From an uncultured Gaiellaceae bacterium (lineage in GTDB: Bacteria; Actinomycetota; Thermoleophilia; Gaiellales; Gaiellaceae), in assembly GCA_963707575.1 (NCBI GenBank), contig OY970171.1, positions 290,743 through 354,742 on the forward strand: a stretch of 64,000 nucleotides of DNA, in the 5' to 3' direction. The position numbers and the translations under genes are program-made. Shown piece after piece: positions 21,932-42,377 of this stretch (position 1 is the first letter of the stretch; every line of letters begins with the position of its first letter). The notes under the pieces were generated by a model. It searched no databases. It worked only from the letters and a program-made list of their open reading frames with translations, and was not told the DNA's origin.

Positions 21932-22003
21932 AAGCAGTCACGTCCCCTACCTCGGTTGCCTCGCCAGGCTACCGCCCGTGCCGGGCCGCGTCGAGCGCTC
22001 CGG

Positions 22004-24633: not shown

Positions 24634-25323
24634 CTAGATGAGCCGTTTCTCCAGCATCGCGGCCAGGCGCGTGAGCGGGAAGGAGATCAGGAAGAACATG
24701 ATCGCGACGGCGCCGAAGATCTCGAACGCGTGGATCTCGCCCAGGCCGATCGGCGGGATCGCGGTCAGCCGCTCGTTCTGGCGCTCCGCCGCCTCCAGCA
24801 GCTCGAGCCCGCCGATCACCTGCGCCAGCGTCGAGTTCTGGATGATGTTCACGAGCAGGCTCACGAACGGGGGCAGCAGCCGGCGCAGCGCCTGCGGCAG
24901 GATCACCCAGGAGTGCCGCCGCACCCAGCCGAAGCCGAGCGCCGACGCCGCCTCGTGCTGCTCGCGCGGGATCGACTGGACGGCGCCGCGGGTCGCCTCG
25001 GCCACCTGCGCGCTCCCCCAGAGGACGAGCGCGATCGCCGCGGCCAGCAGTGGGTCGTCGAACTGGAGCCGCGGCGAGACCGACGGCAGCCCGAAGTAGA
25101 CAATGAAGACGGTGACGAGGATCGGCAGGCCGCGGAAGACCTCGATGTAGAGCCGGATCAGCGCCTGCAGCGGCCGGAAGTGGATCGTCATCAGCGTCCC
25201 GAAAACGAGCCCGATGACCGCGCTGCCGACGACGGCGATCGCGGAGACTTTCAGCGTCCCCGGGAGGCCCTCGAAGACGATGTAGCGGGCGACCGGCTCG
25301 ACCCAGTCGGGCAGGTCGATCAT
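24634..25323 (-). CDS. amino-acid ABC transporter permease
   Basis: His/Glu/Gln/Arg-type permease (TLKVS..., EATRGAVQSIPREQHEAA.ALG EAA loop). ATG 25323 overlaps the upstream permease stop (ATGA). Confidence 0.85.
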   Translation of the reverse strand: MIDLPDWVEPVARYIVFEGLPGTLKVSAIAVVGSAVIGLVFGTLMTIHFRPLQALIRLYIEVFRGLPILVTVFIVYFGLPSVSPRLQFDDPLLAAAIALVLWGSAQVAEATRGAVQSIPREQHEAASALGFGWVRRHSWVILPQALRRLLPPFVSLLVNIIQNSTLAQVIGGLELLEAAERQNERLTAIPPIGLGEIHAFEIFGAVAIMFFLISFPLTRLAAMLEKRLI

Positions 25324-25994
25324 CGGGTCTCCGGGAGGGCGAGGTGCGACTCCAACAGGCGAATCAGCGCCGACAGCGTCCACACGAGCGCGAGGTAGAC
25401 GACCGCCAGCACCGTCAGCGCCTCGGTCGTCTGCAGCGTCAGGTTGCTGATGTTGAGCGCCGTCGTCGTCAGCTCCGGATAGCCGATCACGTACATCAAC
25501 GAGGTGTTCTTCAGCACCGAGATGTAGGTGTTGATCGACGACGGCAGCGCAATGCGGCCGCCGATCGGCAGCGTCACGTTGCGGAAGGTCGCGAGCCGGC
25601 CGAAGCCGAGCGCGTCGCCGGCCTCGCGGAAGCGGTACGGAACAGCCTCGAAGCCGGCCCGGAAGTTCTCGCTGTTGAACGCCCCGCCCCAGATCATCAC
25701 CGAGAGCCAGGCGACCGTGAACTGGTCGAAGACGATCCCGAACTGGGGCAGCGCGTAGAAGATCATGAAGATCTGGACGAGGATCGGCGTGTTCCGGATC
25801 ACCTCCACGTAGACCGCCGTGAACTGGCTGACGACGGGGATCCGGTGTGCGCGCGCCGCGCCGAGCACGAGGCCGATCACGAACGAGCCTGCGATCCCGT
25901 AGGCCGACACCTTCAGTGTGTTCTGGAGGCCGTCGACGAGCTCGGCCCGGTACTCCGAGACGAAGGCCCAGAGGTCGTACGTGGCCAGCAGCAT
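25320..25994 (-). CDS. amino-acid ABC transporter permease
   Basis: TLKVSAYGIAGSFVIG..., FRNTPILVQIF, and EAA-like loop FEAVPYRFREAGDALG. Start at ATG 25994 avoids overlap with the binding-protein gene. Confidence 0.85.
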   Translation of the reverse strand: MLLATYDLWAFVSEYRAELVDGLQNTLKVSAYGIAGSFVIGLVLGAARAHRIPVVSQFTAVYVEVIRNTPILVQIFMIFYALPQFGIVFDQFTVAWLSVMIWGGAFNSENFRAGFEAVPYRFREAGDALGFGRLATFRNVTLPIGGRIALPSSINTYISVLKNTSLMYVIGYPELTTTALNISNLTLQTTEALTVLAVVYLALVWTLSALIRLLESHLALPETR

Positions 25995-26055
25995 CAAAGC
26001 GACAGAGAAGCGGCCGCGCGTGCGCGGCCGCTTCTCGTAGTCATGCGGATTGAAA

Positions 26056-26976
26056 CTAGTTGCAAACGGTCTCCGCGGCAGGCGCACTGGCCGGCGCGTA
26101 TCCGAAGTTGACGTTCGGTCGCAGGATGTTCTTCGAGAAGCCGTTCACGAAGCGGGCCGGCACGTTGTTGCGGAGGATGGGCAGAAACAGGTCCTTCTTC
26201 TTCATCAGGTTCAGCCGCGAGTCGACCCAGCGCTTCATCGCGGCGTTGCCCTGCTTGATCCCGATCCCGTACGGCAGCGCGAGGAAGGTGTCCTCGGTCA
26301 GCTTCGCGGTCTGGTCCGCCGCCGCGACGCCGACGAGCACGGTGTCGTCCCACATCAGCGCATCCGCCCGGCCCTGGTTGAAGGCGAGCAGCGCGTTCGT
26401 GAAGCTGTCCGTCACGACCGCCTCGGTCTGCGTAAAGCAGCGCTTCAGCCATGTGTCGTAGATCGAGCCGCTCGTCGTCGCCACCTTGCGGCCAGCGAGG
26501 TTCGAGAGCGACTGCACCGGCGAGTCGTTCTTGACGAGCAGCCGGCCCGTAGCTTTGTAGTACGCCCGCGAGAAGTCGATCCTCGTATCCCGGGCGGCGG
26601 TGTAGGTGAATGTCGAGATGACGAGGTCGACGCGGTTCGTCGTCAGCAACGGCTCGCGGGCCGGCGTCGGGGCGCACACGAACGACACGCGCTGTGCACG
26701 GCCGAACGCGTAGCGGGCGAACCAGCGGGCGATCTCGACGTCGAAGCCGGCGTTCTTGCCCTGCACGTTGATGTACCCGAACGGCGGCGCGTCGCACTTG
26801 ACCCCGACGACCCAGCGCTGGCGCTGCTTCACCTCCGCGGGCAGCGGCGGCAGCTTGGGCGCCGTCGCCTCCGCCCGGGTCGGGCCGGTCGAGCTCGTCG
26901 GCTGGGCGAAGCCTAGCGTCGCGGTACCCACCGCGATGAGGGCGACCCCGGCCGTGGCCAGCAAGATCCTCTTCAT
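26056..26976 (-). CDS. amino-acid ABC transporter substrate-binding protein (family 3 SBP)
   Basis: 306 aa with a signal peptide [24 protein letters not shown]. Motifs: [17 protein letters not shown]....FS..YY. Confidence 0.85.
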
Positions 26977-27812
26977 TCAGCCACTCCTTCTTCGTTGATT
27001 TGCAGTTCGTCCAGCGAGTCCGCGAGCTGGAGCGTGCGGCGCAGGAACCGCCGCGTGCGCTCGTCCCGCGGGTTGTCGAGCACGTCGGTCGGCCGCCCCT
27101 CTTCGACGATCCGTCCCTCGTCCATGAACACGAGCCTGTCGCCGACCTCACGGGCGAATTGCATCTCGTGCGTGACGACGAGCATCGTCATCCCGGTGCG
27201 GGCGAGGTCCCGCATCACGATCAGCACTTCTCCGACGAGCTCGGGATCGAGCGCCGAGGTGACCTCGTCGAAGAGCATCACGTGCGGGTTCATCATCAGC
27301 GCGCGCGCGATCGCCACCCGCTGCTGCTGGCCGCCGGAGAGCTGATGGGGATGCTGCCGCGCCTTCTCGACGAGGCCAACCGAGTCGAGCAGCGCGAGCG
27401 CCCGCTTCTCGGCCTCCGACCGCGGCACCTTCCGGATCTTGCGCGCCGCGAGCGTGACGTTGTCGATCGCACTCAGGTGCGGGAAGAGGTTGAACTGCTG
27501 GAAGACCATGCCGATGCGCTGGCGCACAGCCGAGACGTCGGCGCCCTTGCGAGTGATCTCGTCGCCCTCGAGGAAGATGCGGCCGGAATCGATCGGCTCG
27601 AGCAGGTTCGTGCAGCGCAGCAGCGTGCTCTTGCCGCTGCCGCTCCGGCCGATGATCACGAGCGCCTCGCCCGCGGCGACCTCCAGGTCGATCCCGTCGA
27701 GCACGAGGTTGTCGCCGAAGCTCTTCCGCACGCCCTCGAGCCGGACGGCCGACCCGGGACGAGCCCCGGCTTGCGTTCCGTCGTGCAGGCTGCTGGCCTC
27801 GGCCGCGCTCAT
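26973..27812 (-). CDS. amino-acid ABC transporter ATP-binding protein
   Basis: Walker [10 protein letters not shown], signature [15 protein letters not shown], Walker [17 protein letters not shown] overlap with the SBP gene. Confidence 0.9.
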
Positions 27813-27905: not shown

Positions 27906-30900
27906 CTACTTGAACTTGAAGCTCGCGACGTGGGTCGAGCCGTCCACGAGGGTGACGATGAGCTGCCGGCACGTGCCCACCCAGGCCTTGTTCGTCTTCC
28001 AGACGTAGTGGTACCGCTGCGAGGCTGCGTCGTAGCTGAGGCCGTTCGCCGCGGGGGAGTCGATCTCCTCGAGCGAGTCGTCCGGCTGGCTGGAGCTGCA
28101 GTTGACGCCGACGGAGGCCGGGCTCCCCGGCGCGAAGATGTTGAGGCCCCGATTTCCTCCGAGGCTGAACTTGATCGGCACGGAGCTGCCCGCCTTGACG
28201 ACATTGACGATCGGGGGATTGTCGACGGGCTCGAAGAAGCCCGTGAACGGCCACACGACGCGATAGGTTCGGGTCGCGGTCGTCGTGTGGCCGACGATGT
28301 CGGTCGCCGTCACCGTGAGCGTCTTCTCGCCGACCGTTCCGGTCGGGAGCGGGCTGCCGTTCGCGGTCGACCCGATGCACGACTTGACGCCGGAACCGGA
28401 GTCGAGGCACCTGAACGCTGCTGCGACGCTCTGGCCGAGCGTGAATGTGGCGTTGGGCGCCGGTGAGGTGATCAGGACCTGAGGCGCCGTCGCGTCGATC
28501 ACGAAGCGCTTCTCCGCGTGCTCGCCGGCCGCCGTGTCGACCTCGACCACGTGCAACCCGTCGCGGGTGACCGACGCGGGCAGCGAGGCAGGCGTCAAGC
28601 CGTCGATCGTCACCGCGGCGCCGTCCGTCGGCGTGACGTCGACGGTGACGGGGCCGGAGAAGTAGTCGGGCAGCCCCGGCGCCTGCGTGCCCGTGAGCTC
28701 GATCGTGATCCCGTTCGGCGGGTCGGCCGGCTCCGGCTGCGCCTGGAAGTAGTGCGCCTTGTTCGTGCTCATCGCGCAGTTCCCGTCGGCGTCGCATGCC
28801 TGCACGATGTACTGCACGTTCGGACCGATCACCGGCGCGCCGCCGGTCCAGCGGCAGCTCCCCGGCGCGTCTGGCAGCAGGTCGACGCCGACCCAGGTGT
28901 CCTGGGTACCGGCGGTGTCGCCGAGGTCGTCGAAGAGGATGAAGACCCGCACGGCCGTGCAGGCGGACACCTCGAAGCCGACGTTCGTCCCGAATCGGGT
29001 CGCCTCGCTCGACACGATCGTCGGCGGCTCGTAGTCGGTGCTCGCGTTGTAGAAGACGCGGCCGCGGATCTGTGTCCAGCGACGCATGACGCTCGCTCCC
29101 TCGCTGCCGGGCGTGTCGTCGGTGAAGTACTGGCTCGTCGCGAGGTTGAGCTGCGAGCGGGTGCCCGTGACGCTCCTCGCAGTCGCCATCGTCGGAATGC
29201 CGCTCGGGAAGCCGATGTCGGTGAACGTCGGCTCGGGCGAGAGCGCCGTCGAGTCCGTCGTCGGCATCAGGAGCGACGGATCCCACGGCGAGTCGTCCTG
29301 CGAGACCAGCGACTCGACCAGGGCCGAGTGCGCGCGCTCGCCGGTCCTCGTCGCCGGCAGGGCGAGCGTCGAGACGAGCGGCCGGTAGTGGACGCCCGTG
29401 ACCTGGCCCGCGTTCGTCCAGAAGTCGCCGAACTCTCGGTTCTCGCGCGTGAAAGCGGGCACGACCGCGAACTCGCCCGAGCGGAGCTGGCTGACGGGAT
29501 CCAGCGTGATCGGGCCCTGGTTCGGAGCGGTTGCGCTCGTCGCACCGGGAATGGTCGTCGGTGCGGGCGGCTGCGGTGGCGGCGGCGAGCCGACGGGGGG
29601 CGGCGCTGAGCCGACACCGAAGAACGGCAGTCCGTAGAGCGTCGCCTGGAGGGTCGTCTTCTGCTCGTAGGCGCTGAAGCTTGCCCGGCCGAGGAAGTAG
29701 TCGGCCTTCGCCTGCGCGAGCGCCTCGCCGATCGTGAGCGAGCCGTTCAGGTTCCCCGCGAGCTCAGCCATCAGCTGCTCCGACCAGGCGATGGAATCGG
29801 TCGAGCCGAGCCCGAAGCCGGTGTTCGCCGCGAAGGCGCTGCGCTGCTCGCCGTACGCCTCGGCCCAGTCGCGCTTGATCGGGCTCGTCTCGCCCACGAT
29901 CACGTTCGCGACGGGGAGTCCTGCGTGGCAGCCGATCGTGAAGACGATCCGCCGCGGCATCGAGCCGGGACGGGCATCGAGGTCGGCAGTCGTGAACAGG
30001 TCGGAGGTGTCCCCCGTCGTGTTCCCGGCTGCCGGCAGCGCGCTGTGGTGGTCGTAGTGGCCGTTCAGCTGGTTGATCCCGGACGCGCCGGTCGTCGGGA
30101 AGAGCGCGCCCAGGAGCCCGACGCGGTTCCAGGTGTCGTCGATGAGCGTGCGCGTATTGGCGGCGCCGACGATTCCCGAGAGCTCCGAGGACGCGGCGGC
30201 GGTACCGTCGCTCGCGAAGTCGTAGCCGGAGCTGAAGGCCGAGTTGCGCGCCAGGATCCCGCTCGCGGCGACGAACTCGTTCAGCTGGCCGATGATCTGG
30301 CCCGGGCTCTCCACCAGCCGGCCGCCCGCGAGATCGGGCACGAAGACCTGCCGGGCGCCGACCTGGATCGGGTCGGTGTCGAGGTACGGGTCGTCCGAGA
30401 GCAGGTTCTCGCGAATGAAGGCGCCCGAGTACTGGTTGCCGGTGAACGTCGAGGCGTTGCCGCTCTCGTTGGCGATCAGCGTCAGGTCCGGGACACGGAA
30501 GAACGGGATCTGGTCGTCGCCGCCCACGAAGACGATGTACTTCAGCGACGGGCGGGTCAGGCGGATCGCGTTCACGGTGGCGGCGATCCCGCTCGCGACC
30601 GCGTTCGCGAGCTCGGGTGCGCACGGGTTCGCGTCCCAGGCGGTGTAGAGCGCGGCGTTGCTCCCGTAGGCCTCGACGGGGACGACGGCGCCGGCGACGC
30701 CGAGCGCGTTCCGGCCGGCGACGTTCGCGAGCGAGGCGAGCACGTCGTTCGCGGGGCCGGTGCCGTACGTCCGGCCGAGCCGGAGCCTGTTGACGAGGAA
30801 GAGCGTGTTCACGTTCGCCGGGATCGCGACCTGCGCACCCGCCGTGCCCTGGGTCGGGAACGGGAAGCTGCGCGGCGCGCACGGCCCGACGGTCGGCGGT

Positions 30901-33900
30901 GGGGTGGTCGTCACGCGCAGGGTGTAGGGCCGCGGCGAGCTCGCGTCGTTGTAGCCCGACACCTGCAGGACGTAGTAGCCGCCCCCGCCGAGCGAGATCG
31001 CCGAGACGTCTTCGGGATCGTTGCCGCGGAAGATCGACTGGCCGGCGATCGGCAGATCGACCGTCGAGATGTCCTGCAGCCCTCCCGGCTCGAGCTGGCG
31101 GCCGAGATCGGTCAGGCCGATCCCGTCGTCCGGGATCGGGGCGTTCTGCAACGGGACGCCGACGGTGCCCGTGTTGACGAGCGGCGGCACCGTCGCCGGG
31201 GCATAGAGCGTCAGGTCGTAGTCCGCGGCCAGGTTCGTCATCCGCACGGTCAGCCGGGTACCGGCCGGCGGGGTCGGGATGCGGTAGAAGTCGGTATCGC
31301 CCTCCTGGTCGAGGTAGGAGAGATCGACCTCGACGTCGGGCTCGACGATCGGCGCGGTCGCCGGATCGTCGTTCGGCTCGAAGACGGTGCGCACGACGAC
31401 GTCGTGGGTGTCGGCCGCCTCGAGCTCGGTGCCCGCGGCGGTGACGGACAGCGACGCGCTCGTCGGCCCGAGATCGATGCCGGGGAGAGCGTCGAAGTCG
31501 AGCCGGTGCTCCACGCCGAAGGCGACGTCCGCGACCGTCCACGTCAGGGTGCGGCCGTCCGTCGAGACGCTCGGGTCCGGTAGCGGGGCCGTGGAGCCGC
31601 CGGCGACGAGCGCTGAGGTGCCCGCGGCGTAGCGCCACCCCTTCGGCAACGTGACGGCCACCGTGGCCTCGCCCGCGCTGCCCTCGTCTCCCGCGAGCGT
31701 GAACGCTGCGTGCCACGTCAGCCCGCCGTTCGTCCCGAAGCTGCCGAGCACGTCCGCGGAGAGCGTCTCCCAGGCGACGCCGGCGCGCGTGATGAAGAGT
31801 GCGAGCAGGTCGTTGAACGTGAGCCCGGAGGGCGTCGGCAGGCCCTCGAGCAGGTCGCCGACGGTCAGCGGCGGCTCGCCGTAGAAGATCAGGTCGCCGA
31901 GCGTGAAGCCGCCGAGCGAACCGGCGAGGTGCGAGAGCGTGGCCGTCTCCTTGATGTGCCCGGCCGCGAAGGCAGCGCCGAGCGTCGCCTCGGTCGTCAC
32001 GGTCAGGACGTCGGCCGGGTTGCGCAGCCCGGCGACGGGAATCGAGCCGAGCGGCGACGAGGTGGCCAGGATCCGGCGCAGCGACAGCTCGCCGAAGCCG
32101 GAGGCTGCGAGGTCGAAGTTGTCGATCGGGAAGTTGTCGATCGGCGACACCGACAACGGCATGTTGTCGATGGGGAAGTTGTCGATCGGCATGTTGTCGA
32201 TCGGGAAGTTGTCGATCGGGAAGTTGTCGATCGGGAAGTTGTCGATCGGGAAGTTGTCGATCGGCGCGCCGGTGAGCGCCGCCCCGAGCACGGTCTGCGA
32301 GCCGATCGTCTGCGCCCGGTTGGCGGGCGTGCAGTTGACGGGCGGGCCGCTCAGGGCGGCGCACCAGTCGGTCAGCGCGTCTCCCCCGCCCAGCGGGTTG
32401 ATCTGCGAGAGCGGGATCGCGCCGACGGCGAGCGCCTCGAAGCCGAGCCGCCGCAGCTTCGAGCTGCCGAAGTCCAGCTGCTCGAACAGGAGCTGCGGCG
32501 TGCTGCTGCCCGGCGTGAGCGCCGGCGAGGGCGGCGTGGCGAGCACGAGCTGCGCCAGCGAGACGCTTTGCGGAGGCACACCGGCGTACCGCGAGCCCTC
32601 GAGCACCTTCGGCCAGCCACCGGGATACGTGATCCCGATCGTCGAGAGCGGCACGTCGTCGAGCTCGGAGGCGACCGTCGGCGCATCGAACGGGAAGTTG
32701 TCGATCGGGAAGTTGTCGATGGGGAAGTTGTCGATCGGGAAGTTGTCGATCGGGAAGTTGTCGATCGGGAAGTTGTCGATCGGAAAGTTGTCAATGGGGA
32801 AGTTGTCGATCGGGAAGTTGTCGATCGGCGCCGGGGCGACGGCGGATGCGGGAGCCGGCTGGAGGATCGAGAGCGGGAAGTTGTCGATCGGCAGCTGACT
32901 GGCGCCGGCCTCGGTCGAGTCCGCATCGGTGGTCAGCGCGGCGGTGATCCCCGTCGGCGTGGCCGCCGGGCTGAGGTCGCGCACGAAGACGTCGATGGCC
33001 GCGTTCGTGTCCTCCTCAGGCCCCAGCAGGTCGTCCGCCGCAGAGGAGAACGTCACATGGCGGCCGTCGGCGCTGAGGGCGGACAGCAGCCCGTTGTGGC
33101 TGGAGCCGTTCCCGGCGACGCCGGCCGGAGTCAGGTCGACGACGCGCGTGGTACCGCCCGCGAGGTCGCGGGCGTAGACGTGGATCCCGCCCGCGTCGGT
33201 CAGCGGGCTCAGGTTGGACGCGGCCGAGGTGAACGAGACGATCAGGCCGTCGTCGCTGAGCGCAGGCGCCGAGGCCTGCGCGTTCCCGCGCTCACCCGTC
33301 CCGCTCAGGTCTGCGATCTCGGTCGTCGCGGCCGCGAGGTCGCGCACGAAGACGTGGCCGTTCGAATCGGCCGGAATGCCCGGCGCGAGGTTCTCGGCGT
33401 TCGAGAGGAAGGCGATCCTGCTTCCGTCGGCACTGAGCGAGGGCGGCCACGCCGGCGAGCTGTCCGCGTCGCCCTGAGCCCCCGCGGAGGAGATGCTGAC
33501 GCGCGTCGTCTCGCCGGTCTCGCGGTCGTGCACGAACACGTCTGTCGCTCCGTTTGTGTCGTTCTCGACGAGGTTGCTCGCGGCCGAGGCGAAGGCGACG
33601 AAGCGCCCGTTGCCGCTCAGCGCGGGATAAAAGCTCGGCCCGTTCGCCTGGACGCCGGCGCTCGAGACGCTGACCCGCTCCGGGCCGGCGCTGCCCAGCT
33701 CGCGCACGTAGACGTCGGACACGCCGTTCGAGTCCTCGCCCTCGGCCAGGAGGTTGGTCGCGACAGTGTCGAACGCGACGGCGTTGCCTGCGGCGGAGAT
33801 CGAGGGGTGCTGGCTCGAGCCGTTTGCGATCGACGCGCCGACCGCATCGACGAGCTGCGTGGAGCCCGCGTCGAGGCTGCGCCGGTAAACGTGCCAGGTA

Positions 33901-36002
33901 CCCGTCCCGGGGACGCAGCTCTCGCCGACGCACGCGAGGTTCGAGGCGAGCGACTGGAACGCGGCGAAGCCGCCGCCGCCCGCGACCTGAACCCAGCCGC
34001 TGTTCGCGTTGCCGGGCTGGACGCCGTCCGGGTTCGGGATGCTCGAGCTGAGCAACGTCGTGGTGCCGGCCGCGCGGTCGCGCGCATAGGCCTGGACGAG
34101 CTCGAGGCTCCCGATCGGGGTGAGGTTCAGCGCCGCGGACTCGAAGCCGACGAGGTTCCCGTCGTCGCTCAGGGACGGGAAGACGCTCGCGCCGCCGTTC
34201 ACCTGGATCCCCGCAGCGGACAGGCTGGCGATGAACGTCTCGCCGGTCACATCCGGGGCGGGCGCGGCCAGGATCGTCCAGGTGCGCACTTCCGGGGTCG
34301 CGTCCGTGTTGCCGGACGGGTCGGTCGCCTGCGCCGTGAAGGTGTGCTCGCCGAGCCCGAGCTCCGAGAAGAACTCGGTGCCCTCGCAGCCGTCCACCAG
34401 CTCGCCGTCGAGCGTGCAGGCGAACGTCGAGCCTTCCTCGTTCGAGCCGACCGTAAAGGAGGCGACCGTGTCGGTCGTCGACTCGCCGGGGCCACCCGCG
34501 ATCTCGGTCACCGGCGGCGTCCGGTCGAGGTCGACCTCGATCGAGTTCACATAGGACGCCCCACCCTCCTCGAGCGCACGCGCGGTGACGATCGCGCCGT
34601 CTCCGACGACGTCGCCGGCCTCGAAGCTCGCCTCGTAGGGAGCCTCGGAGTCGGTTCCGAGCGCGTGCGTGCCGGCGTCGTCCGTGTAGGAGAACTGCAT
34701 CTGGATGATCGCGTGCACGTCGCCCCCGGAGGCGCTGACGGCGACCGTGCCCACGACCGTCGTCCCGGCGACCGGCGCGGAGATCGCCGGCACCGGCTGC
34801 CAGTCGGGGAAGCCGTTGCGCGCGCCCGCGACGACCTGCGTGGGATCGCCGCCGTCGGCGCTGATCGTGGCGAGGTCGAAGTTGCTGTTGCCGAACCGCG
34901 TCGTGACGTAGGCGACGCGAGACCCGTCGGGCGACCAGGCGGGATCGGCGTTGTACGCGCCGTCCGCCGTCAGCGGGGTGGCGACCGGCTCCGCGGTCAC
35001 CGGGTCGACCGTCCACAGCTCGTGCTGGTCGCCGGCGCCGGCCCGGACGAAGACGATCTTCCCGCGCACTCCCCAGTCGGGGTCGGTGTCGCTCTGCGGT
35101 CCGCTGGTGAGGACCCGCAGGTCGCCGGTCAGGTCGACACGCTTCGTGAAGATCTGGCAGGGCTGGCCCGCTGGGCAGTACTGGAATGTCAGCTCGTCTC
35201 CGTTGGGGGAGAAGGATGGCGCGCCGGCGGGGTGCTCGCCCCGGAAGATCGTGGTGACTGCGCGCGTGGCGACGTCCATGACGTAGATCCCGTTGAAACC
35301 GACGACTCGGTCACTCTCGAAGGCGATCAAGCGTCCGTCGGGAGACCAGGCAGGTGCGCCGTCGTAGCGGTCGTTGTTCGTCAGCTGAACGCGCCCATCC
35401 GGCCCATCGAGGTACAGCTCGAAGGCGCTGGCCGGGTCCGCGACGTCCTTGGAGGCGAACACGGTGCGGGAGCCGTCAGGCGAGACCGCAACCAGCTGGT
35501 CGGCAGACGGATCGGTGACGACGCCCTGCAGACCGCTGCCGACCGGGCGAACGGAGTAGATGTCGTGGTTCTGGTCGGGAAGGCTCGTCGAGCGGAGGAA
35601 GAAGATCCGGCCGTTGCCCGGCAGCTCGAGCGGCTGGATCGTGTAGCTCTGGTCGAGCGCCTCGGAGAGCACGTAGCCGAGGCAGTTGCCCGCCTTGTCC
35701 ACGGCGACCCACGGATGTGTGAGCCAGGTGGGCTGCGAGTAGCCGGCGCCGTCCTGCAGCGTCGCATAGTGGATGCGGTCACCCTCGTAGTCGAGCCAGT
35801 AGATGTCCACCTCCGTGCCGCTCTCGTTCACGAAGGTGATCTGCGAGGGCGTCGAGCCGTCGATCGATTGCGCCTGCGTGACGTGGCAGTTCGGGTTCAC
35901 GACGGCCGAGCCCGACGGCACGACGACGGCAGCGGCCAGGGCAACCGCCATCAAGCCGAGCGCAGCCACCGTCCAGGTGTGACGGCGTAGCGAAGCCCTC
36001 AA
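27906..36002 (-). CDS. giant (~2,698 aa) secreted multidomain protein: signal peptide, VHL-beta-like domain, TolB/PD40-type propellers, Ig-like domains, two PIDNF repeat arrays, PPC domain, C25 (gingipain)-like peptidase domain, Ig-like/C-terminal beta-sandwich domains
   Basis: Uninterrupted ORF 27906..36281. Start proposed at TTG 36002 (MRASLRRHTWTVAALGLMAVALAAAVVVPSGSA). Farther upstream the ORF overlaps the divergent cyclase gene and encodes low-complexity sequence. Domain motifs are quoted in the findings. Confidence 0.8.
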   Translation of the reverse strand: MRASLRRHTWTVAALGLMAVALAAAVVVPSGSAVVNPNCHVTQAQSIDGSTPSQITFVNESGTEVDIYWLDYEGDRIHYATLQDGAGYSQPTWLTHPWVAVDKAGNCLGYVLSEALDQSYTIQPLELPGNGRIFFLRSTSLPDQNHDIYSVRPVGSGLQGVVTDPSADQLVAVSPDGSRTVFASKDVADPASAFELYLDGPDGRVQLTNNDRYDGAPAWSPDGRLIAFESDRVVGFNGIYVMDVATRAVTTIFRGEHPAGAPSFSPNGDELTFQYCPAGQPCQIFTKRVDLTGDLRVLTSGPQSDTDPDWGVRGKIVFVRAGAGDQHELWTVDPVTAEPVATPLTADGAYNADPAWSPDGSRVAYVTTRFGNSNFDLATISADGGDPTQVVAGARNGFPDWQPVPAISAPVAGTTVVGTVAVSASGGDVHAIIQMQFSYTDDAGTHALGTDSEAPYEASFEAGDVVGDGAIVTARALEEGGASYVNSIEVDLDRTPPVTEIAGGPGESTTDTVASFTVGSNEEGSTFACTLDGELVDGCEGTEFFSELGLGEHTFTAQATDPSGNTDATPEVRTWTILAAPAPDVTGETFIASLSAAGIQVNGGASVFPSLSDDGNLVGFESAALNLTPIGSLELVQAYARDRAAGTTTLLSSSIPNPDGVQPGNANSGWVQVAGGGGFAAFQSLASNLACVGESCVPGTGTWHVYRRSLDAGSTQLVDAVGASIANGSSQHPSISAAGNAVAFDTVATNLLAEGEDSNGVSDVYVRELGSAGPERVSVSSAGVQANGPSFYPALSGNGRFVAFASAASNLVENDTNGATDVFVHDRETGETTRVSISSAGAQGDADSSPAWPPSLSADGSRIAFLSNAENLAPGIPADSNGHVFVRDLAAATTEIADLSGTGERGNAQASAPALSDDGLIVSFTSAASNLSPLTDAGGIHVYARDLAGGTTRVVDLTPAGVAGNGSSHNGLLSALSADGRHVTFSSAADDLLGPEEDTNAAIDVFVRDLSPAATPTGITAALTTDADSTEAGASQLPIDNFPLSILQPAPASAVAPAPIDNFPIDNFPIDNFPIDNFPIDNFPIDNFPIDNFPIDNFPIDNFPFDAPTVASELDDVPLSTIGITYPGGWPKVLEGSRYAGVPPQSVSLAQLVLATPPSPALTPGSSTPQLLFEQLDFGSSKLRRLGFEALAVGAIPLSQINPLGGGDALTDWCAALSGPPVNCTPANRAQTIGSQTVLGAALTGAPIDNFPIDNFPIDNFPIDNFPIDNMPIDNFPIDNMPLSVSPIDNFPIDNFDLAASGFGELSLRRILATSSPLGSIPVAGLRNPADVLTVTTEATLGAAFAAGHIKETATLSHLAGSLGGFTLGDLIFYGEPPLTVGDLLEGLPTPSGLTFNDLLALFITRAGVAWETLSADVLGSFGTNGGLTWHAAFTLAGDEGSAGEATVAVTLPKGWRYAAGTSALVAGGSTAPLPDPSVSTDGRTLTWTVADVAFGVEHRLDFDALPGIDLGPTSASLSVTAAGTELEAADTHDVVVRTVFEPNDDPATAPIVEPDVEVDLSYLDQEGDTDFYRIPTPPAGTRLTVRMTNLAADYDLTLYAPATVPPLVNTGTVGVPLQNAPIPDDGIGLTDLGRQLEPGGLQDISTVDLPIAGQSIFRGNDPEDVSAISLGGGGYYVLQVSGYNDASSPRPYTLRVTTTPPPTVGPCAPRSFPFPTQGTAGAQVAIPANVNTLFLVNRLRLGRTYGTGPANDVLASLANVAGRNALGVAGAVVPVEAYGSNAALYTAWDANPCAPELANAVASGIAATVNAIRLTRPSLKYIVFVGGDDQIPFFRVPDLTLIANESGNASTFTGNQYSGAFIRENLLSDDPYLDTDPIQVGARQVFVPDLAGGRLVESPGQIIGQLNEFVAASGILARNSAFSSGYDFASDGTAAASSELSGIVGAANTRTLIDDTWNRVGLLGALFPTTGASGINQLNGHYDHHSALPAAGNTTGDTSDLFTTADLDARPGSMPRRIVFTIGCHAGLPVANVIVGETSPIKRDWAEAYGEQRSAFAANTGFGLGSTDSIAWSEQLMAELAGNLNGSLTIGEALAQAKADYFLGRASFSAYEQKTTLQATLYGLPFFGVGSAPPPVGSPPPPQPPAPTTIPGATSATAPNQGPITLDPVSQLRSGEFAVVPAFTRENREFGDFWTNAGQVTGVHYRPLVSTLALPATRTGERAHSALVESLVSQDDSPWDPSLLMPTTDSTALSPEPTFTDIGFPSGIPTMATARSVTGTRSQLNLATSQYFTDDTPGSEGASVMRRWTQIRGRVFYNASTDYEPPTIVSSEATRFGTNVGFEVSACTAVRVFILFDDLGDTAGTQDTWVGVDLLPDAPGSCRWTGGAPVIGPNVQYIVQACDADGNCAMSTNKAHYFQAQPEPADPPNGITIELTGTQAPGLPDYFSGPVTVDVTPTDGAAVTIDGLTPASLPASVTRDGLHVVEVDTAAGEHAEKRFVIDATAPQVLITSPAPNATFTLGQSVAAAFRCLDSGSGVKSCIGSTANGSPLPTGTVGEKTLTVTATDIVGHTTTATRTYRVVWPFTGFFEPVDNPPIVNVVKAGSSVPIKFSLGGNRGLNIFAPGSPASVGVNCSSSQPDDSLEEIDSPAANGLSYDAASQRYHYVWKTNKAWVGTCRQLIVTLVDGSTHVASFKFK
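32115..32264 (-). repeat. tandem 15-bp repeat array 1 inside the giant gene (10 units; PIDNF/PIDNM, one degenerate PLSVS unit)
   Basis: Plus-strand unit GAAGTTGTCGATCGG. 6 units are identical. Variants are CATGTTGTCGATCGG, CATGTTGTCGATGGG and CGACACCGACAACGG. Confidence 0.95.
32692..32826 (-). repeat. tandem 15-bp repeat array 2 inside the giant gene (9 units, all PIDNF), plus one isolated unit at 32876..32890
   Basis: Plus-strand unit GGGAAGTTGTCGATC. 7 of 9 units are identical; the others differ by 1 and 3 nt. Confidence 0.95.
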
Positions 36003-36105
36003 TTTGTCGAGCCTGCCGCAGATCCTGGCCCCTCCTCCCGTTGCCGCCGACCCTACTCCTCTCCGCCGGGATTTCCTAGAGATTTCGTCGCTTTCGTGCG
36101 CAACA

Positions 36106-39100
36106 ATGGGTAGCTCGGTGACGCAGACGCTGACGCAGCCGGGCCTCGAGCCGTACGTCCCGCGCCTCGTGCGCACGTGGAACGACGTGCGCGGAGGGGT
36201 CGACGCGATCGAGGTGGACGGCACGCTCGTCTCCGTCGACCTGGCCGGCTTCACCGCGCTCTCGGAGCGGCTGGCCGCCAAGGGCCGCGCCGGCGCCGAG
36301 GAGCTGATCCTCCTGATCAGCGGCGTCTACGAGGGGCTGATCGGGATCGCAGGGCGCCGCGGCGGCGACGTGCTCAAGTTCCGCGGCGACGCGCTCCTGA
36401 TCTTCTTCGAGGACGACGACCACGCCCTCCGCGCCTGCATCGCCGCGGGCGAGATGCAGTGGTTGATCGAAGAGACGGGCCGCACGCGCAGCTCGGTCGG
36501 CGCCGTCGAGCTGACGATGGCGGTCGGCATCCACTCCGGCCCGTGCCACTTCTTCCTCTCCGGCCGCTCGCACCGCGAGCTCGTGATCGCCGGGCCGGCC
36601 GCGACGGGGACGCTGCGGCTCGAGGACGCGGCGAGCTCCCGGGAGATCCTCGTCAGCGCTGCGACCGCGCACGCGCTCGACCCGGGCTGGCTCGGGGCCG
36701 CGCGCGACGGCGCGGTGCTGCTGAAGCCCGGCCTCCACAACGGGGTGCCGGACGAGCCCGGCGCCCCCGACGAGCCGGCCACGGACGCCGACCTCGTCGA
36801 GTTCGTCCCGCTTCCGCTACGACCCGTGCTGGCCTCCGGGGCGGCCGAGGCCGAGCACCGGCAGGCGACGGTCGCCTTCGTGAAGTTCACGGGCGCCGAC
36901 GAGCTGCTCGCTCGGGAGGGCATCGACGGGCTCGGCGAGCGGATCACACGCCTCGGCGACATCGTCGACGGGACGGTCGACGGGCTCGGGATCACCTGGC
37001 TCGAGTCGGACATCGACCTCGACGGGGGCAAGGTCTATCTCACGGCGGGGGCGCCGGCGACGCCTGGAGGCGACGAGGAGAGGATGCTGCTGGCGCTCCG
37101 CGCGATCCTCGACGAGGAGTGCGGCCTCACGCTGCGCGCCGGGGTCAACCGCGGCCACGTCTTCGCGGGCGAGATCGGCGCCGAGCGCCGGCGCACCTAC
37201 GCCGTGATGGGCGACACGGTCAATCTCGCCGCCCGCCTCGCAGGACGTGCTCAGCCGGGCCAGATCCTCGCCACCGGGGACGTGCTCGAGCGGGCCCGCA
37301 CCCGCTTCGAGACGAGCTCTCAGCCGTTCCTGATGAAAGGCAAGGAGCGTGCCGTCACCGCGTACAGCGTCGGCGCCGTCGTCGGCCTCCGCGAGGAGCA
37401 GCTGCCGGAGCGCCTGCCGCTCATCGGCCGCGAATCGGAGCTCACTGCGCTGCGCGAGGCGGTCGACTCGGCACGCCAGCGCCAGAGCCGCCTGATCGAG
37501 CTCGTCGGCGAGCCGGGAATCGGCAAGACGCGGTTGATCGACGAGCTGACCGCGCTCTCGCTGGGCTTCACGCAGCTCGTGGCGCGCTCGGAGGCCTATG
37601 CGACGGCGGCGCCGTACTTCGTCTTCCGCCCGCTGCTGCGGCAGCTGGCGGGGATCCTGCCGACCGCCGCCCGAGACGACGCCGGCCAGCAGCTCACTGC
37701 GTGGGTGCAGGGGGTGATGCCGGATCAGCTGCCGTGGTTGCCGCTGCTCGGTGTCGCGTTCGACGCGGAGGTCGAACCGACGCCCGAGACCGATGCACTC
37801 GCGGCGTCGATGCGGCGACAGCGGCTGCACGAGGCGGTCGAGCAATTCCTCGTGCGCATCCTGATGATGCCGACCCTGCTCGTCTTCGAGGACACCCACT
37901 GGCTTGACGACGCCTCACGTGAGCTGCTGCTGCACCTCGCGCTGAGACCGTCTCCGCGCCCGTGGCTGATCTGCGTGACTCGCCGCCCACGTGGCGCGTC
38001 CTTCGTCGAGGAGGGCGGCGCGGAAGGGCTCGTGATCGCGCTCGAGCCACTCGCGCCGGAGCTGACTGCGTCGCTCGCCCGGATCGTCGACAACGAGCTG
38101 TCGCTGTCCGAGGACGAGCTCGAATCGCTGGTTGCGCGCGCAGGCGGCAATCCGCTGTTCGTTCGTGAGCTCGTCGCTGCGATCCGCCGCGGCGCAGCCG
38201 GCGAGCTGCCCGAGACGGTCGAGCGCCTGATGACCGAGCGCATCGACACGCTCGACCCCGAGGACCGGCTGCTCCTCCGCGTCGCCGCCGTGGTCGGCCC
38301 GCGCTTCGACCTCGAGCTGATGCGGGAGCTGCTCGGCGACGAGCTCGGCGACGTCGGCGAGATCGAGCGCTGGCACCGTCTCGGCGAGTTTGTCGAGTGG
38401 CGCGGCGAGGACACGCTCCGGTTCCGCCACGACCTCTTCCGCGCCGCAGCCTACGAAGGACTGTCCTTCCAGCGTCGACACGACGTGCATGCGCGCGTCG
38501 GCGCGGCGCTCGAGCGCCGCGCGGGCGAGCGAACCGACGAGGCGGCGGGGCTGCTCTCGCTCCACTTCCTCGAGGGCCGCGAGCCCGAGAAGGCCTGGCG
38601 CTACTCGGTCGCCGCGGGCCGGCGTGCCCAGGGGCTGTGGTCGAACGTCGATGCGGCCGAGTTCTACGAGCGCGCCCTGAGCGCGGCCGACGACCTCGAC
38701 GGGGCCGACCCGGTGGAGGTGTCGGCCGTCGCCGAGTCGCTCGGAGACGTCTGCGAGCTCGCCGCTCGCTACGACGAGGCGAGCGAGGCCTACGGCCGCG
38801 CCCGCGCGCTCGTCGGCGACGACGTCGTCGCGTCGGCTCGGCTGCTGCGCAAGGAGGGTGTCCTGCACGAGCGCCACGGCGGCTACGACGGCGCGCTCGA
38901 GCTCTACCGCCGGGCACTGGAGTTGCTCGACTTTCCGGCCGGCGGCGGCGCCCCGGCCTCGGACCGGGTCGAGCTCGAGCTCGAATACGCAACCGTGCTC
39001 TTCCGGCAGGGGCACTTCGAGGAGTGCCTGGGCTGGGCGGAGCGGGCGGCCGAGCACGCGCAGGACGCAGACGACCGGCCCGGCCTCGCCCACGCCTACC

Positions 39101-39894
39101 GGGTCCTGAACACGGCCCATCGAGAGCTCGGCGGCACCGAGACGCGCTGGTTCGAGCTCGCGCTCCCCATTTACGAGGAGCTCGGAGACCGGGTCGGCAA
39201 GGCGATCGTGCTCAACAATCTCGGCGTCAGCGCGTACTTCGCCGGCCGCTGGGACGAGGCGATGACGTACTACGAGCAGAGCGTCGAGGAGGAGCACGCG
39301 GCCGGCGACCCCATCCGTGCCGCGAACTCGTCGAACAACGTCGCCGAGATCCTGCTCGACCAAGGCCGGCTCGAGCCGGCCGTCGAGCTCCTGCGGGAGG
39401 CGCTCCGCGTCTACAACGCCGCCGGGTACATGCTGGGGGCGGGCGTGGCGAAGAAGAACCTCGCCCGGGCAGCGGCGGCGGTCGGGGCCTTCGACGAGGC
39501 ACACGCGCTCTTCGACGAGGCGCTCGCGCATCTGGAGGAGATCGGCGCGGGCACGTTCGTCCACGAGGCGAAGGCGCGGAAGGCGGAGTGCTTCGTGCTG
39601 GAGGGAAGCCACCGCGAGGCGCTCGCGCTGGCGCAGGACGTGCTCACCGAGGCGCCCGACGCGCTCGTCGAGCGGCTCGTCGGCTACGCGCTCGCGCAGG
39701 CCCGGCGACCCGAGGAGGCGCGGCCGCACTTCGAGGAGAGCCTGCGCCTGGCCCGGGAGCGCGGCGCCCGCTACGAGGTCGCGCGCACGTTGCGCGCGCT
39801 CGCGGACACGGGAGCGCCCGAGCACGGCGCGGAGGCGCAGGAGCTGCTCGCCTCGCTCGGCGTCGTCTCGCTGCCGCGCGTGCCGCTGCCCTGA
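36106..39894 (+). CDS. large signalling ATPase: two tandem class III adenylate/guanylate cyclase homology domains + AAA/P-loop NTPase + TPR repeats
   Basis: CHD1: VSVDLAGFTALSE...GDVLKFRGDALLIFF. CHD2: ATVAFVKFTG...RAGVNRGHVFAGEIG...YAVMGDTVNLAARL. P-loop GEPGIGKTRL. C-terminal TPR-like helices. Start at ATG 36106. Confidence 0.85.
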   Translation: MGSSVTQTLTQPGLEPYVPRLVRTWNDVRGGVDAIEVDGTLVSVDLAGFTALSERLAAKGRAGAEELILLISGVYEGLIGIAGRRGGDVLKFRGDALLIFFEDDDHALRACIAAGEMQWLIEETGRTRSSVGAVELTMAVGIHSGPCHFFLSGRSHRELVIAGPAATGTLRLEDAASSREILVSAATAHALDPGWLGAARDGAVLLKPGLHNGVPDEPGAPDEPATDADLVEFVPLPLRPVLASGAAEAEHRQATVAFVKFTGADELLAREGIDGLGERITRLGDIVDGTVDGLGITWLESDIDLDGGKVYLTAGAPATPGGDEERMLLALRAILDEECGLTLRAGVNRGHVFAGEIGAERRRTYAVMGDTVNLAARLAGRAQPGQILATGDVLERARTRFETSSQPFLMKGKERAVTAYSVGAVVGLREEQLPERLPLIGRESELTALREAVDSARQRQSRLIELVGEPGIGKTRLIDELTALSLGFTQLVARSEAYATAAPYFVFRPLLRQLAGILPTAARDDAGQQLTAWVQGVMPDQLPWLPLLGVAFDAEVEPTPETDALAASMRRQRLHEAVEQFLVRILMMPTLLVFEDTHWLDDASRELLLHLALRPSPRPWLICVTRRPRGASFVEEGGAEGLVIALEPLAPELTASLARIVDNELSLSEDELESLVARAGGNPLFVRELVAAIRRGAAGELPETVERLMTERIDTLDPEDRLLLRVAAVVGPRFDLELMRELLGDELGDVGEIERWHRLGEFVEWRGEDTLRFRHDLFRAAAYEGLSFQRRHDVHARVGAALERRAGERTDEAAGLLSLHFLEGREPEKAWRYSVAAGRRAQGLWSNVDAAEFYERALSAADDLDGADPVEVSAVAESLGDVCELAARYDEASEAYGRARALVGDDVVASARLLRKEGVLHERHGGYDGALELYRRALELLDFPAGGGAPASDRVELELEYATVLFRQGHFEECLGWAERAAEHAQDADDRPGLAHAYRVLNTAHRELGGTETRWFELALPIYEELGDRVGKAIVLNNLGVSAYFAGRWDEAMTYYEQSVEEEHAAGDPIRAANSSNNVAEILLDQGRLEPAVELLREALRVYNAAGYMLGAGVAKKNLARAAAAVGAFDEAHALFDEALAHLEEIGAGTFVHEAKARKAECFVLEGSHREALALAQDVLTEAPDALVERLVGYALAQARRPEEARPHFEESLRLARERGARYEVARTLRALADTGAPEHGAEAQELLASLGVVSLPRVPLP

Positions 39895-42036: not shown

Positions 42037-42156
42037 CGGCAGACCTTCGCAGCATTTGTTGCGATTGGAAAGCACTGGTGGGAAGATCGTGGCGTCGATG
42101 CACGTCTTGTGATCAACGCGCCCGATCCCGAGGCGCCCGAGTTGAAGGAGAGGCAC

Positions 42157-42348
42157 ATGTCGGATCGTGAGAGGCACGAGCGCGACAGAGCTGAGAGCCT
42201 GAAGGACGAGGGCGACTCCAGCACCGAGGAGACACCGGACGTCGAGGCGCATCGCTTCGAGACCGGGTCCGAGGCGGCGCGGGCCGACCATGGCCGCGCC
42301 GATCAGGGCACCGAGCCCGAGGATCGCCACCGGAACGAGTCGGTCTAG
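42157..42348 (+). CDS. small (63 aa) highly charged hypothetical protein
   Basis: ATG 42157 lies 6 nt after AAGGAGAGG. GC3-rich codons. Followed by a strong hairpin. The sequence MSDRERHERDRAESLKDEGD... has no recognisable family. Confidence 0.4.
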   Translation: MSDRERHERDRAESLKDEGDSSTEETPDVEAHRFETGSEAARADHGRADQGTEPEDRHRNESV

Positions 42349-42377
42349 CAGCAGGCAGCAGCTTGGCACTTGCGGCC

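Follow-up and report, generated by a model that had tools for sequence, protein, structure and literature searches.

A giant C25-like protein of uncultured Gaiellaceae, predicted to be an exported cysteine peptidase, is encoded beside a tandem-cyclase STAND gene

Peptidases of MEROPS family C25 (clan CD) are, to our knowledge, known almost entirely from the gingipains and PorU of Bacteroidota. The peptidase activity of the gingipains shows strict P1 specificity, for Arg or Lys. Adenylyl cyclases of the mycobacterial Rv0386 type, which belong to a separate part of the story told here, reportedly combine a cyclase, an ATPase, TPR repeats, and a LuxR helix-turn-helix (HTH) domain. The locus described here brings relatives of both kinds together in an uncultured Gaiellaceae bacterium (assembly GCA_963707575.1, contig OY970171.1, positions 290,743 to 354,742). 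This stretch of 64,000 nucleotides is the window of our analysis, and all coordinates below are counted from its first letter. One of its genes encodes a giant protein with a C25-like domain, and its divergent neighbor encodes a cytoplasmic protein with two cyclase domains, a STAND-type ATPase, and TPR repeats. We favor the reading, with a probability of roughly 0.7, that the giant protein is exported by the Sec route and acts outside the cell or at its wall as a cysteine endopeptidase of the gingipain/PorU type, and that it is coupled to the adjacent cyclase. The features on which this reading is built are the following.

27906..36002, minus strand: coding sequence of the giant protein, 2,698 residues from TTG 36002; stop codon 27906–27908; frame open upstream to 36281.
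29613..30815, minus strand: C25-like (clan CD) cysteine peptidase domain, residues ~1730–2130, identified by the Peptidase_C25 profile, dyad conservation, AlphaFold, and Foldseek.
30057–30059, minus strand: codon of the predicted catalytic residue His1982, in an N-G-H context.
29928–29930, minus strand: codon of the predicted catalytic residue Cys2025, in a G-C-H-x-G context.
35904..36002, minus strand: signal peptide, residues 1–33, with MRASLRRHTW, a hydrophobic core, PSGSA, and predicted cleavage before VVNPNC, read from the sequence and the ortholog pattern.

The C25-like domain, its gene, and its family

An initial annotation of this stretch, made by reading the letters and translations, had placed a C25 gingipain-like domain in the giant protein. 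In the window protein itself the similarity is marginal: the whole-protein Pfam scan missed the domain, and the Peptidase_C25 profile (PF01364) gives 20.3 bits against a cut-off of 23 (E 3.6e-4, profile positions 65–368 of 374). The relatives are more explicit. When window residues 1700–2140 were aligned with 17 relatives and each sequence was scanned separately, 16 of the 18 family members matched Peptidase_C25, the best at 1.1e-13, and fragments from relatives carry the NCBI name "C25 family cysteine peptidase." His1982 and Cys2025 are each present in 80 of 81 family sequences, which range from 39 to 88% identity. Around them D1829, D1839, D1870, Y1927, F1929, and H2026 are invariant in the 81 sequences, and R1895 and E1898 are each retained in 80. 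Conservation of the dyad together with its surroundings reads as the signature of an active enzyme rather than of a scaffold. It is speculation that the invariant acidic residues D1829, D1839, D1870, and E1846 might line the S1 pocket.

The fold agrees with this assignment. An AlphaFold model of residues 1700–2590, built with 46 sequences (predicted local distance difference test score, pLDDT, of 90.2; predicted template-modeling score, pTM, of 0.89), consists of an alpha/beta domain followed by beta-sandwiches. In the model, His1982 comes directly after strand 277–280 and Cys2025 directly after strand 320–322, which is the clan CD arrangement. Foldseek matches to the whole model include PorU (6za2, E 3.8e-7), caspase-7 (1f1j, TMt 0.49), and separase (5u1t, root mean square deviation (rmsd) 5.2 over 252 columns). 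The gingipain-like domain of the initial annotation is thus upheld by 16 of 18 family members, by the dyad, and by the fold, but the window protein's own score stays below the threshold.

The domain is part of a single unbroken open reading frame (ORF) on the minus strand (27906..36281), with 2,791 codons counted from the first possible start. GC content at the three codon positions is 0.64/0.54/0.93 in a window of 71% GC (range 70–74%). Because values of 0.54 at the second and 0.93 at the third position are the pattern of real genes in this window, and occur only in the minus-strand frame, we regard the frame as a real gene. At this GC content, spurious long ORFs turn up on every strand, and the antisense ones, among them an ORF of 1,426 codons (31710–35990, plus strand), were rejected as the usual high-GC artifacts. 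Six orthologs of 2,670–2,691 residues, at 75–95% identity and from independent assemblies, align end to end with the ORF intact. The single uninterrupted frame noted at the outset is therefore borne out by the ORF scan, by third-position GC, and by these orthologs, and since the latter align over their full length it is not split by frameshifts in independent assemblies.

The N-termini of the orthologs keep the series ...SLRR(H/R)TW, a hydrophobic stretch, and VP[AST]G[ST]A, with [IV]VNPNCH following the cleavage point. This peptide is conserved even upstream of some called starts, gene callers differing between orthologs. Because a signal-type peptide is conserved at this place in the orthologs, the comparison of sequences puts the translation start at TTG 36002 or a short distance upstream of it. 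The signal peptide is probably of the Sec type, and the distant relatives P0010 and P0013 have signal-like N-termini too. The initial annotation spoke of an RR-containing signal peptide. The signal peptide part of that description stands on its conserved pattern, but the RR pair falls outside the twin-arginine translocation (Tat) consensus, reading S-L-R-R-H-T-W against S/T-R-R-x-F-L-K, and Tat export was not confirmed; the pair is kept in some orthologs, not in P0002, and export of a folded protein of ~2,700 residues by Tat is unlikely. The only strong Shine-Dalgarno-like run upstream, GGGAGGAGGGG (36020–36040, minus strand), lies 24–34 nucleotides ahead of TTG 36002 and is too distant to serve it. 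An in-frame ATC stands at a normal distance after this run and is conserved at locus L081.

The giant protein belongs to a large family. BLAST against the retrieved homologs separates two tiers, six true orthologs and about 15 giants of 2,000–4,500 residues that share only residues ~1015–2585. A pattern scan with one genome per species found the C25-like domain at no fewer than 549 loci, in Gaiellaceae and other Thermoleophilia, Acidimicrobiia, Nocardioidaceae, and Chloroflexota. With few exceptions, the ORF that holds it has 1,500–5,200 codons. Cultured carriers are Nocardioides marmorisolisilvae and Ilumatobacter nonamiensis, and the best match to the C25 region of the window (88%) comes from a metagenome-assembled genome of an uncultured member of Gaiellaceae. 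An exhaustive profile search of 1.84 billion representatives of clusters formed at 50% identity returned 2,057 proteins with E<=1e-30 and 3,706 with E<=1e-3.

The cyclase-STAND gene next to the giant gene

36109..39894, plus strand: partner gene for a cytoplasmic protein of 1,261 residues, with two tandem class III cyclase domains (Pfam Guanylate_cyc twice), a STAND-type ATPase (AAA_16), and TPR repeats.
36048..36058, minus strand: GAGTAGGGTCG box, within the intergenic region 36003–36108 (106 nucleotides) and ~48 nucleotides upstream of TTG 36002.

The partner gene, hereafter the regulator gene, is divergent from the giant gene, and its start at 36109 is 106 nucleotides from TTG 36002. In 63 of 80 loci from two phyla, a regulator homolog of 35–89% identity, full-length in most, is adjacent to the giant gene. 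Seventeen loci have no regulator; 14 of them are cut by a contig end, 13 of these with a truncated giant ORF. In close orthologs the whole neighborhood is syntenic, which proves little on pairing. At loci L083 and L084 the regulator adjoins the giant gene though the other neighbors differ; beside the genes of P0010 and P0013 (core 35% identical), in similarly changed surroundings, sits a gene for a regulator of 1,212–1,264 residues. None of the other window genes is conserved alongside the giant gene across loci. The two genes may be divergent, convergent, or co-directional. The link with the divergent neighbor, which the initial annotation had suggested as coregulation from the short spacing, is strongly supported by this pairing. 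What is conserved is adjacency, whatever the orientation, and not a shared divergent promoter.

In an alignment of 17 regulators (52% mean column identity) an N-terminal PYVPRL motif stands out. Cyclase domain 1 retains the metal-binding Asp residues D44 and D94, cyclase domain 2 retains K308, D369, N372, and R376, and the Walker A motif is intact. We read K308 and D369 as the Lys/Asp pair that contacts substrate and N372 and R376 as the transition-state Asn and Arg. Because these catalytic residues are split between both cyclase domains, the tandem is predicted to be a pseudo-heterodimer with one adenylyl-cyclase site. Pfam detects neither a DNA-binding domain nor an HTH in the regulator. The cyclase and ATPase part gives a partial match to TIGR03903, "TOMM system kinase/cyclase fusion protein" (163 bits against 706), and further matches of the regulator are to the TPR portions of AfsR and HaaT, the latter associated with ribosomally synthesized and post-translationally modified peptides (RiPPs). 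By these similarities it may be loosely linked to regulators found beside peptide natural-product clusters. At L081, the locus of P0006, the regulator (L081:6039-9819) is called as three or four ORFs (462, 291, and 254 residues) with a 171-residue ORF on the opposite strand between the pieces, and the giant gene is intact; the break is either pseudogenization or the result of long-read frameshift errors.

Many regulator loci that have no C25 gene (L085–L100) adjoin genes for other signal-peptide proteins, which are rich in DUF11, carry an RCC1 propeller, or are without a known domain. Examples are L085:4420-5775(-), L088:6395-9247(-), and L097:7129-9726(-). Comparison of these alternative partners with one another and with the giant protein revealed no shared domain (no blastp match to the giant; hhalign probability 1.4%), and they have no pentapeptide arrays of the kind described below. 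From these neighborhoods, the cyclase-STAND family appears to pair generally with secreted proteins, with the giant C25 proteins as one class of partner, and the giant C25 proteins appear almost never to occur without a cyclase-STAND gene.

Within the intergenic region the GAGTAGGGTCG box is invariant in the six orthologous regions, down to lineages in which the C25 region is ~70% identical. It is a possible actinobacterial-like −10 element (TAGGGT) of the promoter of the giant gene. An A/T-rich block, GAAATCTCTAGGAAAT, lies upstream of the box. Scans of both gene ends for consensus sigma-70 promoters and for terminators found nothing. A CTCTAG motif present in intergenic regions of close and distant relatives was rejected as a signal, as many of its copies are in-frame TAG stops at gene ends.

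The conserved core, its variable termini, and the other window genes

What the giants have in common is a core of ~1,570 residues (residues 1015–2585 of the window protein), with ~34% identity to at least 15 of them. Its order is array 1, an LRR-like segment (for leucine-rich repeat), array 2, short-helix repeats, a DUF11-like domain, a PPC-like domain, the C25 domain, and four Ig-like domains. Outside the core the giants diverge: among them are proteins that begin with CSLREA or a beta-helix and proteins that end in PD40 or PxKF. The parts of the core other than the peptidase domain are as follows.

32679..32828, minus strand: pentapeptide array 1, residues 1059–1108; nine PIDNF units and one PFDAP, in a 15-bp tandem repeat of 9.5 copies at 92% match.
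32265..32678, minus strand: inter-array segment, residues 1109–1246; conserved, with invariant W1130, W1213, and C1214; pLDDT 60–83 in part.
32115..32264, minus strand: pentapeptide array 2, residues 1247–1296; PIDNF/PIDNM units and one PLSVS, in a 15-bp tandem repeat of 10 copies at 81% match.
31722..32114, minus strand: short-helix repeat region, residues 1297–1427; recurring T(L/V)GDLL motifs, conserved in the core alignment; pLDDT 60–85 in part.
31383..31721, minus strand: DUF11-like beta-sandwich, residues 1428–1540; modeled beta-strands, pLDDT 67–87.
30903..31370, minus strand: beta-sandwich like PPC and collagen-binding domains, residues 1545–1700; Pfam PPC at E 0.24, Foldseek fold match.
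28245..29555, minus strand: Pro-rich linker and about four Ig/FN3-like beta-sandwiches, residues 2150–2586; all-beta model with high pLDDT.

The two PIDNF arrays seen in the initial annotation are real, with 10 units each encoded by 15-bp tandem repeats (span of the array 1 repeat on the DNA, 32686–32828). Arrays occur in at least 37 of the 80 loci, and across the family their position in the core is retained whereas the unit differs by lineage. Within each protein the unit is uniform, in both arrays. The units found are PIDNF, PINGL, PINQL, PVNQS/T, PVNET, PLGAI, PLGDT, PLSSI, PLRSV, PMSAI, and PIASI, which share the pattern P-[ILMV]-x-x-[ILVFT], i.e. P-Φ-x-x-Φ. In the window, array 1 counts nine PIDNF units; its counterparts in P0002 and P0006, orthologs at 83% and 75% identity, have eight. 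Because the DNA repeats are nearly identical and copy number differs among close orthologs, we conclude that the arrays evolve by slippage or conversion, with the period, the position, and the first two residues under constraint. AlphaFold predicts no fold or helix for them (pLDDT 24–32), and the conservative reading is that of a semi-rigid spacer or wall-spanning stalk. Assignment to the Pfam pentapeptide-repeat family PF00805, whose A(D/N)LXX units form a right-handed quadrilateral beta-helix, was rejected, as there is no Pfam match and the P-Φ-x-x-Φ unit is unlike its consensus. A whole-protein match to Extensin_1 was likewise set aside as an artifact of the Pro-rich repeats.

Between the arrays run motifs of the form LDLSxSPLGxLPxxALALGxxPLSxI, whose resemblance to LRRs was judged by eye only. 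The lineage's own pentapeptide unit recurs in this segment at scattered conserved PLxxI positions. Pfam scans matched no family to the inter-array segment or to the short-helix region (residues 1297–1427), and a scan of residues 1104–1545 in six diverse members gave only spurious Extensin_1 or Pentapeptide_2 hits and one sub-threshold DUF11 match, in the P0010 equivalent of the DUF11-like region (E 0.007). From a weak AlphaFold model of residues 1040–1720 (pLDDT 55) we drew on the PPC part alone. That part, modeled with medium confidence (pLDDT 68–87), matches ColG s3b and ColH s3 in Foldseek with TM-scores of 0.70–0.77 and rmsd of 2.6–3.7 Å. The PPC domain of the initial annotation is thus supported as a fold, but not as a profile match: PF04151 scores 12.7 bits on the giant protein against a cut-off of 25.9 (E 0.24).

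The Foldseek matches of residues 2150–2586 are tandem Ig-like adhesins, e.g. SiiE and RTX adhesins, and Big_7 appears below its cut-off at residues 2507–2568. Of the further Ig/HYR-like modules that had been proposed here, the Ig-like sandwiches are recovered by the model, but HYR (PF02494) has no match in the whole protein or in residues 2141–2590 scanned alone, where only the sub-threshold Big_7 appeared. Outside the core the window protein has the following modules.

35697..35867, minus strand: VHL-beta-like beta-sandwich, residues 46–102; Pfam PF01847, 28.2 bits against a cut-off of 21, E 1.9e-6.
34797..35615, minus strand: PD40/TolB-type propeller 1, residues ~130–402; Pfam PD40 (PF07676), 85.7 bits in 3 stretches.
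34248..34796, minus strand: two Ig-like modules, residues 403–585, including the GEHTFTAQATDPSGN motif; motif and weak profile matches only.
32958..34247, minus strand: PD40-type propeller 2, residues 586–1015, with S.DG..V.F.S.A.NL blades; Pfam PD40, 36.8 bits against 20.9 when scanned alone.
27909..28244, minus strand: PxKF ("rightmost") domain, residues 2587–2698; NCBIfam NF038114, 137 bits against 35, profile positions 1–113; motif P-I-K-F.

Domain searches thus recovered most of what had been read by eye at the two ends of the protein. The VHL-beta-like module, which also occurs in the relatives P0001, P0003, P0006, P0007, and P0019, and both propellers score above their Pfam cut-offs (20.9 bits for PD40). 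Propeller 1 gives in addition a partial match to the TolB propeller TIGR02800 (1.7e-29), and propeller 2 aligns repeatedly with PD40-rich giants, e.g. P0017 and P0021. For the Ig-like modules of residues 403–585 all profile matches are sub-threshold (Big_7 20.5 bits, Big_13 14.8 bits, OmpL47-type 18.5 bits); the all-beta sandwiches with adhesin matches obtained by AlphaFold and Foldseek are those of residues 2150–2586. The conserved C-terminal beta-sandwich turned out to be the PxKF domain.

Homologs of this PxKF domain, unusually well conserved at 50–66% identity, end otherwise unrelated secreted proteins (P0113–P0232) of Acidobacteriota, Chloroflexota, Deinococcus, and Actinomycetota. Within the giant family only ~10 of 80 members have a PxKF C-terminus, and the rest end in PD40 propellers or other modules. 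By this distribution PxKF behaves like a shuffled module, one that might recognize something universal or be recognized by common machinery.

The PxKF, PD40, and VHL modules are already known families, as is the kind of peptidase, C25. In the literature that we found, the ~1,570-residue core, the lineage-specific P-Φ-x-x-Φ arrays, and the near-obligate pairing with a tandem-cyclase STAND gene are undescribed. Literature searches on C25 in Actinobacteria, on C25 with cyclase/TPR, on PxKF, and on CSLREA returned nothing relevant and no characterized family member, full-length homologs included. The architecture, which the initial annotation did not recognize from any characterized protein, is accordingly without a characterized counterpart in the literature searched but is not a one-off, its core being common to a large family.

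Three further features of the window are listed here.

40372–42369, minus strand: MFS_3-type (major facilitator superfamily, MFS) transporter with a C-terminal domain binding cyclic nucleotide monophosphates (cNMP), next to the regulator gene and convergent with it.
25320–27812, minus strand: amino-acid-type ATP-binding cassette (ABC) transporter (ATPase, family-3 solute-binding protein, permease), 93 nucleotides downstream of the giant stop codon.
19985–21937, minus strand: ORF of 650 residues with a borderline Vps62 match (22.0 bits against 22.1) and no NCBIfam match.

Genes similar to the MFS/cNMP gene occur near the pair in a minority of loci (L014, L015, L030, L052, L071, and L084). Its product is a plausible local target of cyclic AMP (cAMP), outside the conserved pair. 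The ABC transporter, a methyltransferase, and other neighbors were rejected as parts of the unit, being syntenic only in close relatives, and the ABC transporter is probably unrelated to the giant gene.

Interpretation and comparison with known systems

The initial annotation had called the giant protein a surface or extracellular protease/adhesin, and this is still the best reading, given the signal peptide kept by the orthologs, the modules of binding type, and the conserved His/Cys dyad of the C25-like domain. We picture its parts as follows. The variable N-terminal ~1,000 residues and the C-terminal PxKF domain would be interchangeable targeting or binding modules, and the conserved ~1,570-residue core would perform the family-specific job. 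Within the core, the DUF11-like and PPC/collagen-binding-like sandwiches could present substrate or help to bind it, His1982 and Cys2025 would cleave peptide bonds, and the approximately four Ig-like domains that follow the catalytic domain might be spacers. In the partner, the two cyclase domains would complement each other to make one adenylyl-cyclase site, controlled by the STAND ATPase and the TPR sensor. The coupling would most likely run through cAMP-dependent control of the secreted protein or through a response to it.

Several observations weigh against this picture. Activity, substrate, and localization are predictions for all family members, and the window protein itself falls just under the Pfam C25 cut-off. 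Neither the C25 region by itself nor a profile of 18 sequences gave a meaningful match among PDB sequences; the domain is therefore a remote branch of C25. The alignment to PorU has a TM-score of 0.20 in the whole-model search, a low value because the model holds many domains. Modeling of the N-terminal half of the core was poor (pLDDT 55), no fold was predicted for the arrays, and the roles suggested for these parts are guesses. On the side of the partner, Pfam finds no DNA-binding domain in the regulator, and cAMP as a diffusible, non-specific signal does not account for a gene-specific link. A reverse test was also made on metagenome contigs with the 20 best regulator loci, mostly full-length matches at 36–42% identity. 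A C25 core was adjacent in only two of the 20, so the regulator is not dedicated to the giant protein; four more distant regulators (27–30% identity) do have a C25-like gene adjacent.

A different function would be that of a sortase or transpeptidase like PorU. Rather than degrade substrates outside the cell, the C25-like domain would then cut off a C-terminal sorting domain, the protein's own PxKF or that of others, and attach the cargo to an envelope polymer. Of the structures matched by Foldseek, PorU 6za2 (ranks 2–3) alone belongs to family C25, and PxKF, always at the extreme C-terminus of many secreted proteins, offers a formal analogy with the C-terminal domain of the type IX secretion system (T9SS). 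We nevertheless consider this function unlikely, as only about one family member in eight (~10/80) ends in PxKF, PxKF proteins occur in phyla in which this C25 family was not seen, the TM-score of the PorU alignment is low, and a T9SS is not expected in a monoderm actinomycete. A role as a purely attaching adhesin or surface-layer protein, its C25-like domain a dead scaffold, would suit the fact that most of the length consists of binding-type modules (propellers, Ig-like sandwiches, the collagen-binding-like domain) and that the window protein scores below the C25 cut-off. Retention of the His/Cys dyad and its surroundings in 80 of 81 relatives, across 39–88% identity, would be unexpected for a pseudo-enzyme, and we give this option only a slim chance. 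Even smaller is the chance we assign to an intracellular conflict or antiphage module, in which the partners would be either a STAND NTPase and a caspase-like protease effector, or a cyclase of the Pycsar kind and a membrane effector that binds cNMP. The regulator does match PADLOC models of PycC cyclases (best 1.5e-16), the cNMP-binding domain of the MFS protein weakly matches Pycsar effector models, and pairings of STAND ATPases with caspase-fold proteases are generally known from conflict systems. But the PycC matches are explained by the fold common to class III cyclases, and the Lys/Asp pair of the cyclase is the one usual in adenylyl cyclases. The MFS gene is present at a few loci only, and the giant protein has no PADLOC match and does have a signal peptide and extracellular-type modules.

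The arrays and the TPR repeats of the partner allow one more proposal, a peptide-signal polyprotein. Some 20 pentapeptides would be excised by the built-in protease or by another, taken up again by the cell, and recognized by the TPR repeats of the STAND cyclase, which would translate their concentration into cAMP in the manner of RRNPP quorum sensing. The array position and the five-residue period are kept, the unit is lineage-specific and uniform in each protein, and a TPR-containing partner is nearly always adjacent. There is, moreover, a slight excess of TPR identity between proteins whose units are 0–1 residue apart (residual +0.025 to +0.038, against ~0 at 2–4). This co-variation is weak and inconsistent, however, with the three PLGAI pairs showing negative residuals. 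A fixed P1 residue is required by clan CD enzymes, and the units have no such residue in common: their constant positions are Pro and the hydrophobic residue after it. Regulators paired with non-C25 secreted proteins have array-free partners, and near-identical 15-bp repeats are expected from slippage alone. We therefore hold the proposal to be very unlikely. In one version of it, which we regard as equally far-fetched, the pentapeptides would be freed by the protein's own C25 protease or by a protease of a competitor and read by the TPR domain. The pair would then be a new kind of outside-to-inside signaling unit, in which a kin-specific peptide signal encoded as a polyprotein acts on a second messenger in place of a transcription factor.

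The C25-like domains described here form a second, very large branch of C25 (~2,000 clusters at 50% identity), embedded in predicted secreted proteins of 1,500–5,000 residues and found in abundant and poorly studied soil and freshwater lineages, namely Gaiellales and other Thermoleophilia, Acidimicrobiia, Nocardioides, and Chloroflexota. With an active protease, the giant proteins would be candidates for a major extracellular proteolytic or adhesive factor of the organisms that carry them. The pairing offers an entry point to what multidomain actinobacterial adenylyl cyclases sense, and two cultured carrier species make experiments feasible. The finding is of interest to specialists in proteases and in actinobacterial signaling and is not categorically new.

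The locus can be compared with several described systems. Like RgpB and Kgp of Porphyromonas gingivalis, the giant protein would be a secreted multidomain cysteine peptidase. It shares with them a His that precedes the Cys, both placed directly behind a beta-strand of a caspase-type alpha/beta fold. Further common features are an Ig-like sandwich right after the catalytic domain, adhesin-type modules, and a C-terminal beta-sandwich, and its relatives match Pfam Peptidase_C25. It differs from them in its marginal sequence similarity (20.3 bits, no PDB sequence match), in being 3–5 times larger, in having PPC-like and DUF11-like domains and arrays N-terminal to the catalytic domain, and in its conserved cyclase partner gene. 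Its host is a monoderm actinomycete, and in the position of the T9SS C-terminal domain, which it does not have, it carries PxKF. The alignment to PorU, the T9SS sortase, covers the catalytic domain and the following beta domains, but PorU works in an outer-membrane T9SS complex that is absent from the lineage of the giant protein. With a PxKF C-terminus, and with its closest genomes in Gaiellaceae and other Thermoleophilia, all monoderm Actinomycetota, the giant protein does not belong among T9SS-type proteins.

Residues 1545–1700 superpose on the collagen-binding domains ColG s3b and ColH s3 (4hpk, 1nqd, 3jqw), and in both cases the domain accompanies a protease domain. In the giant protein it is N-terminal and not C-terminal to the catalytic domain, and collagen binding is not implied. 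The match to NF038114 PxKF proteins is full-length, at the extreme C-terminus, and includes the PxKF motif; as this domain is shuffled among many unrelated secreted proteins of several phyla, it does not define the giant protein. Finally, the regulator has the same order of class III cyclase, AAA/STAND ATPase, and TPR repeats as the Rv0386-type cyclases. It is set apart from them by two tandem cyclase domains that split the catalytic residues, by the lack of a LuxR HTH by Pfam, by its PYVPRL N-terminal motif, and by its conserved secreted-protein neighbor.

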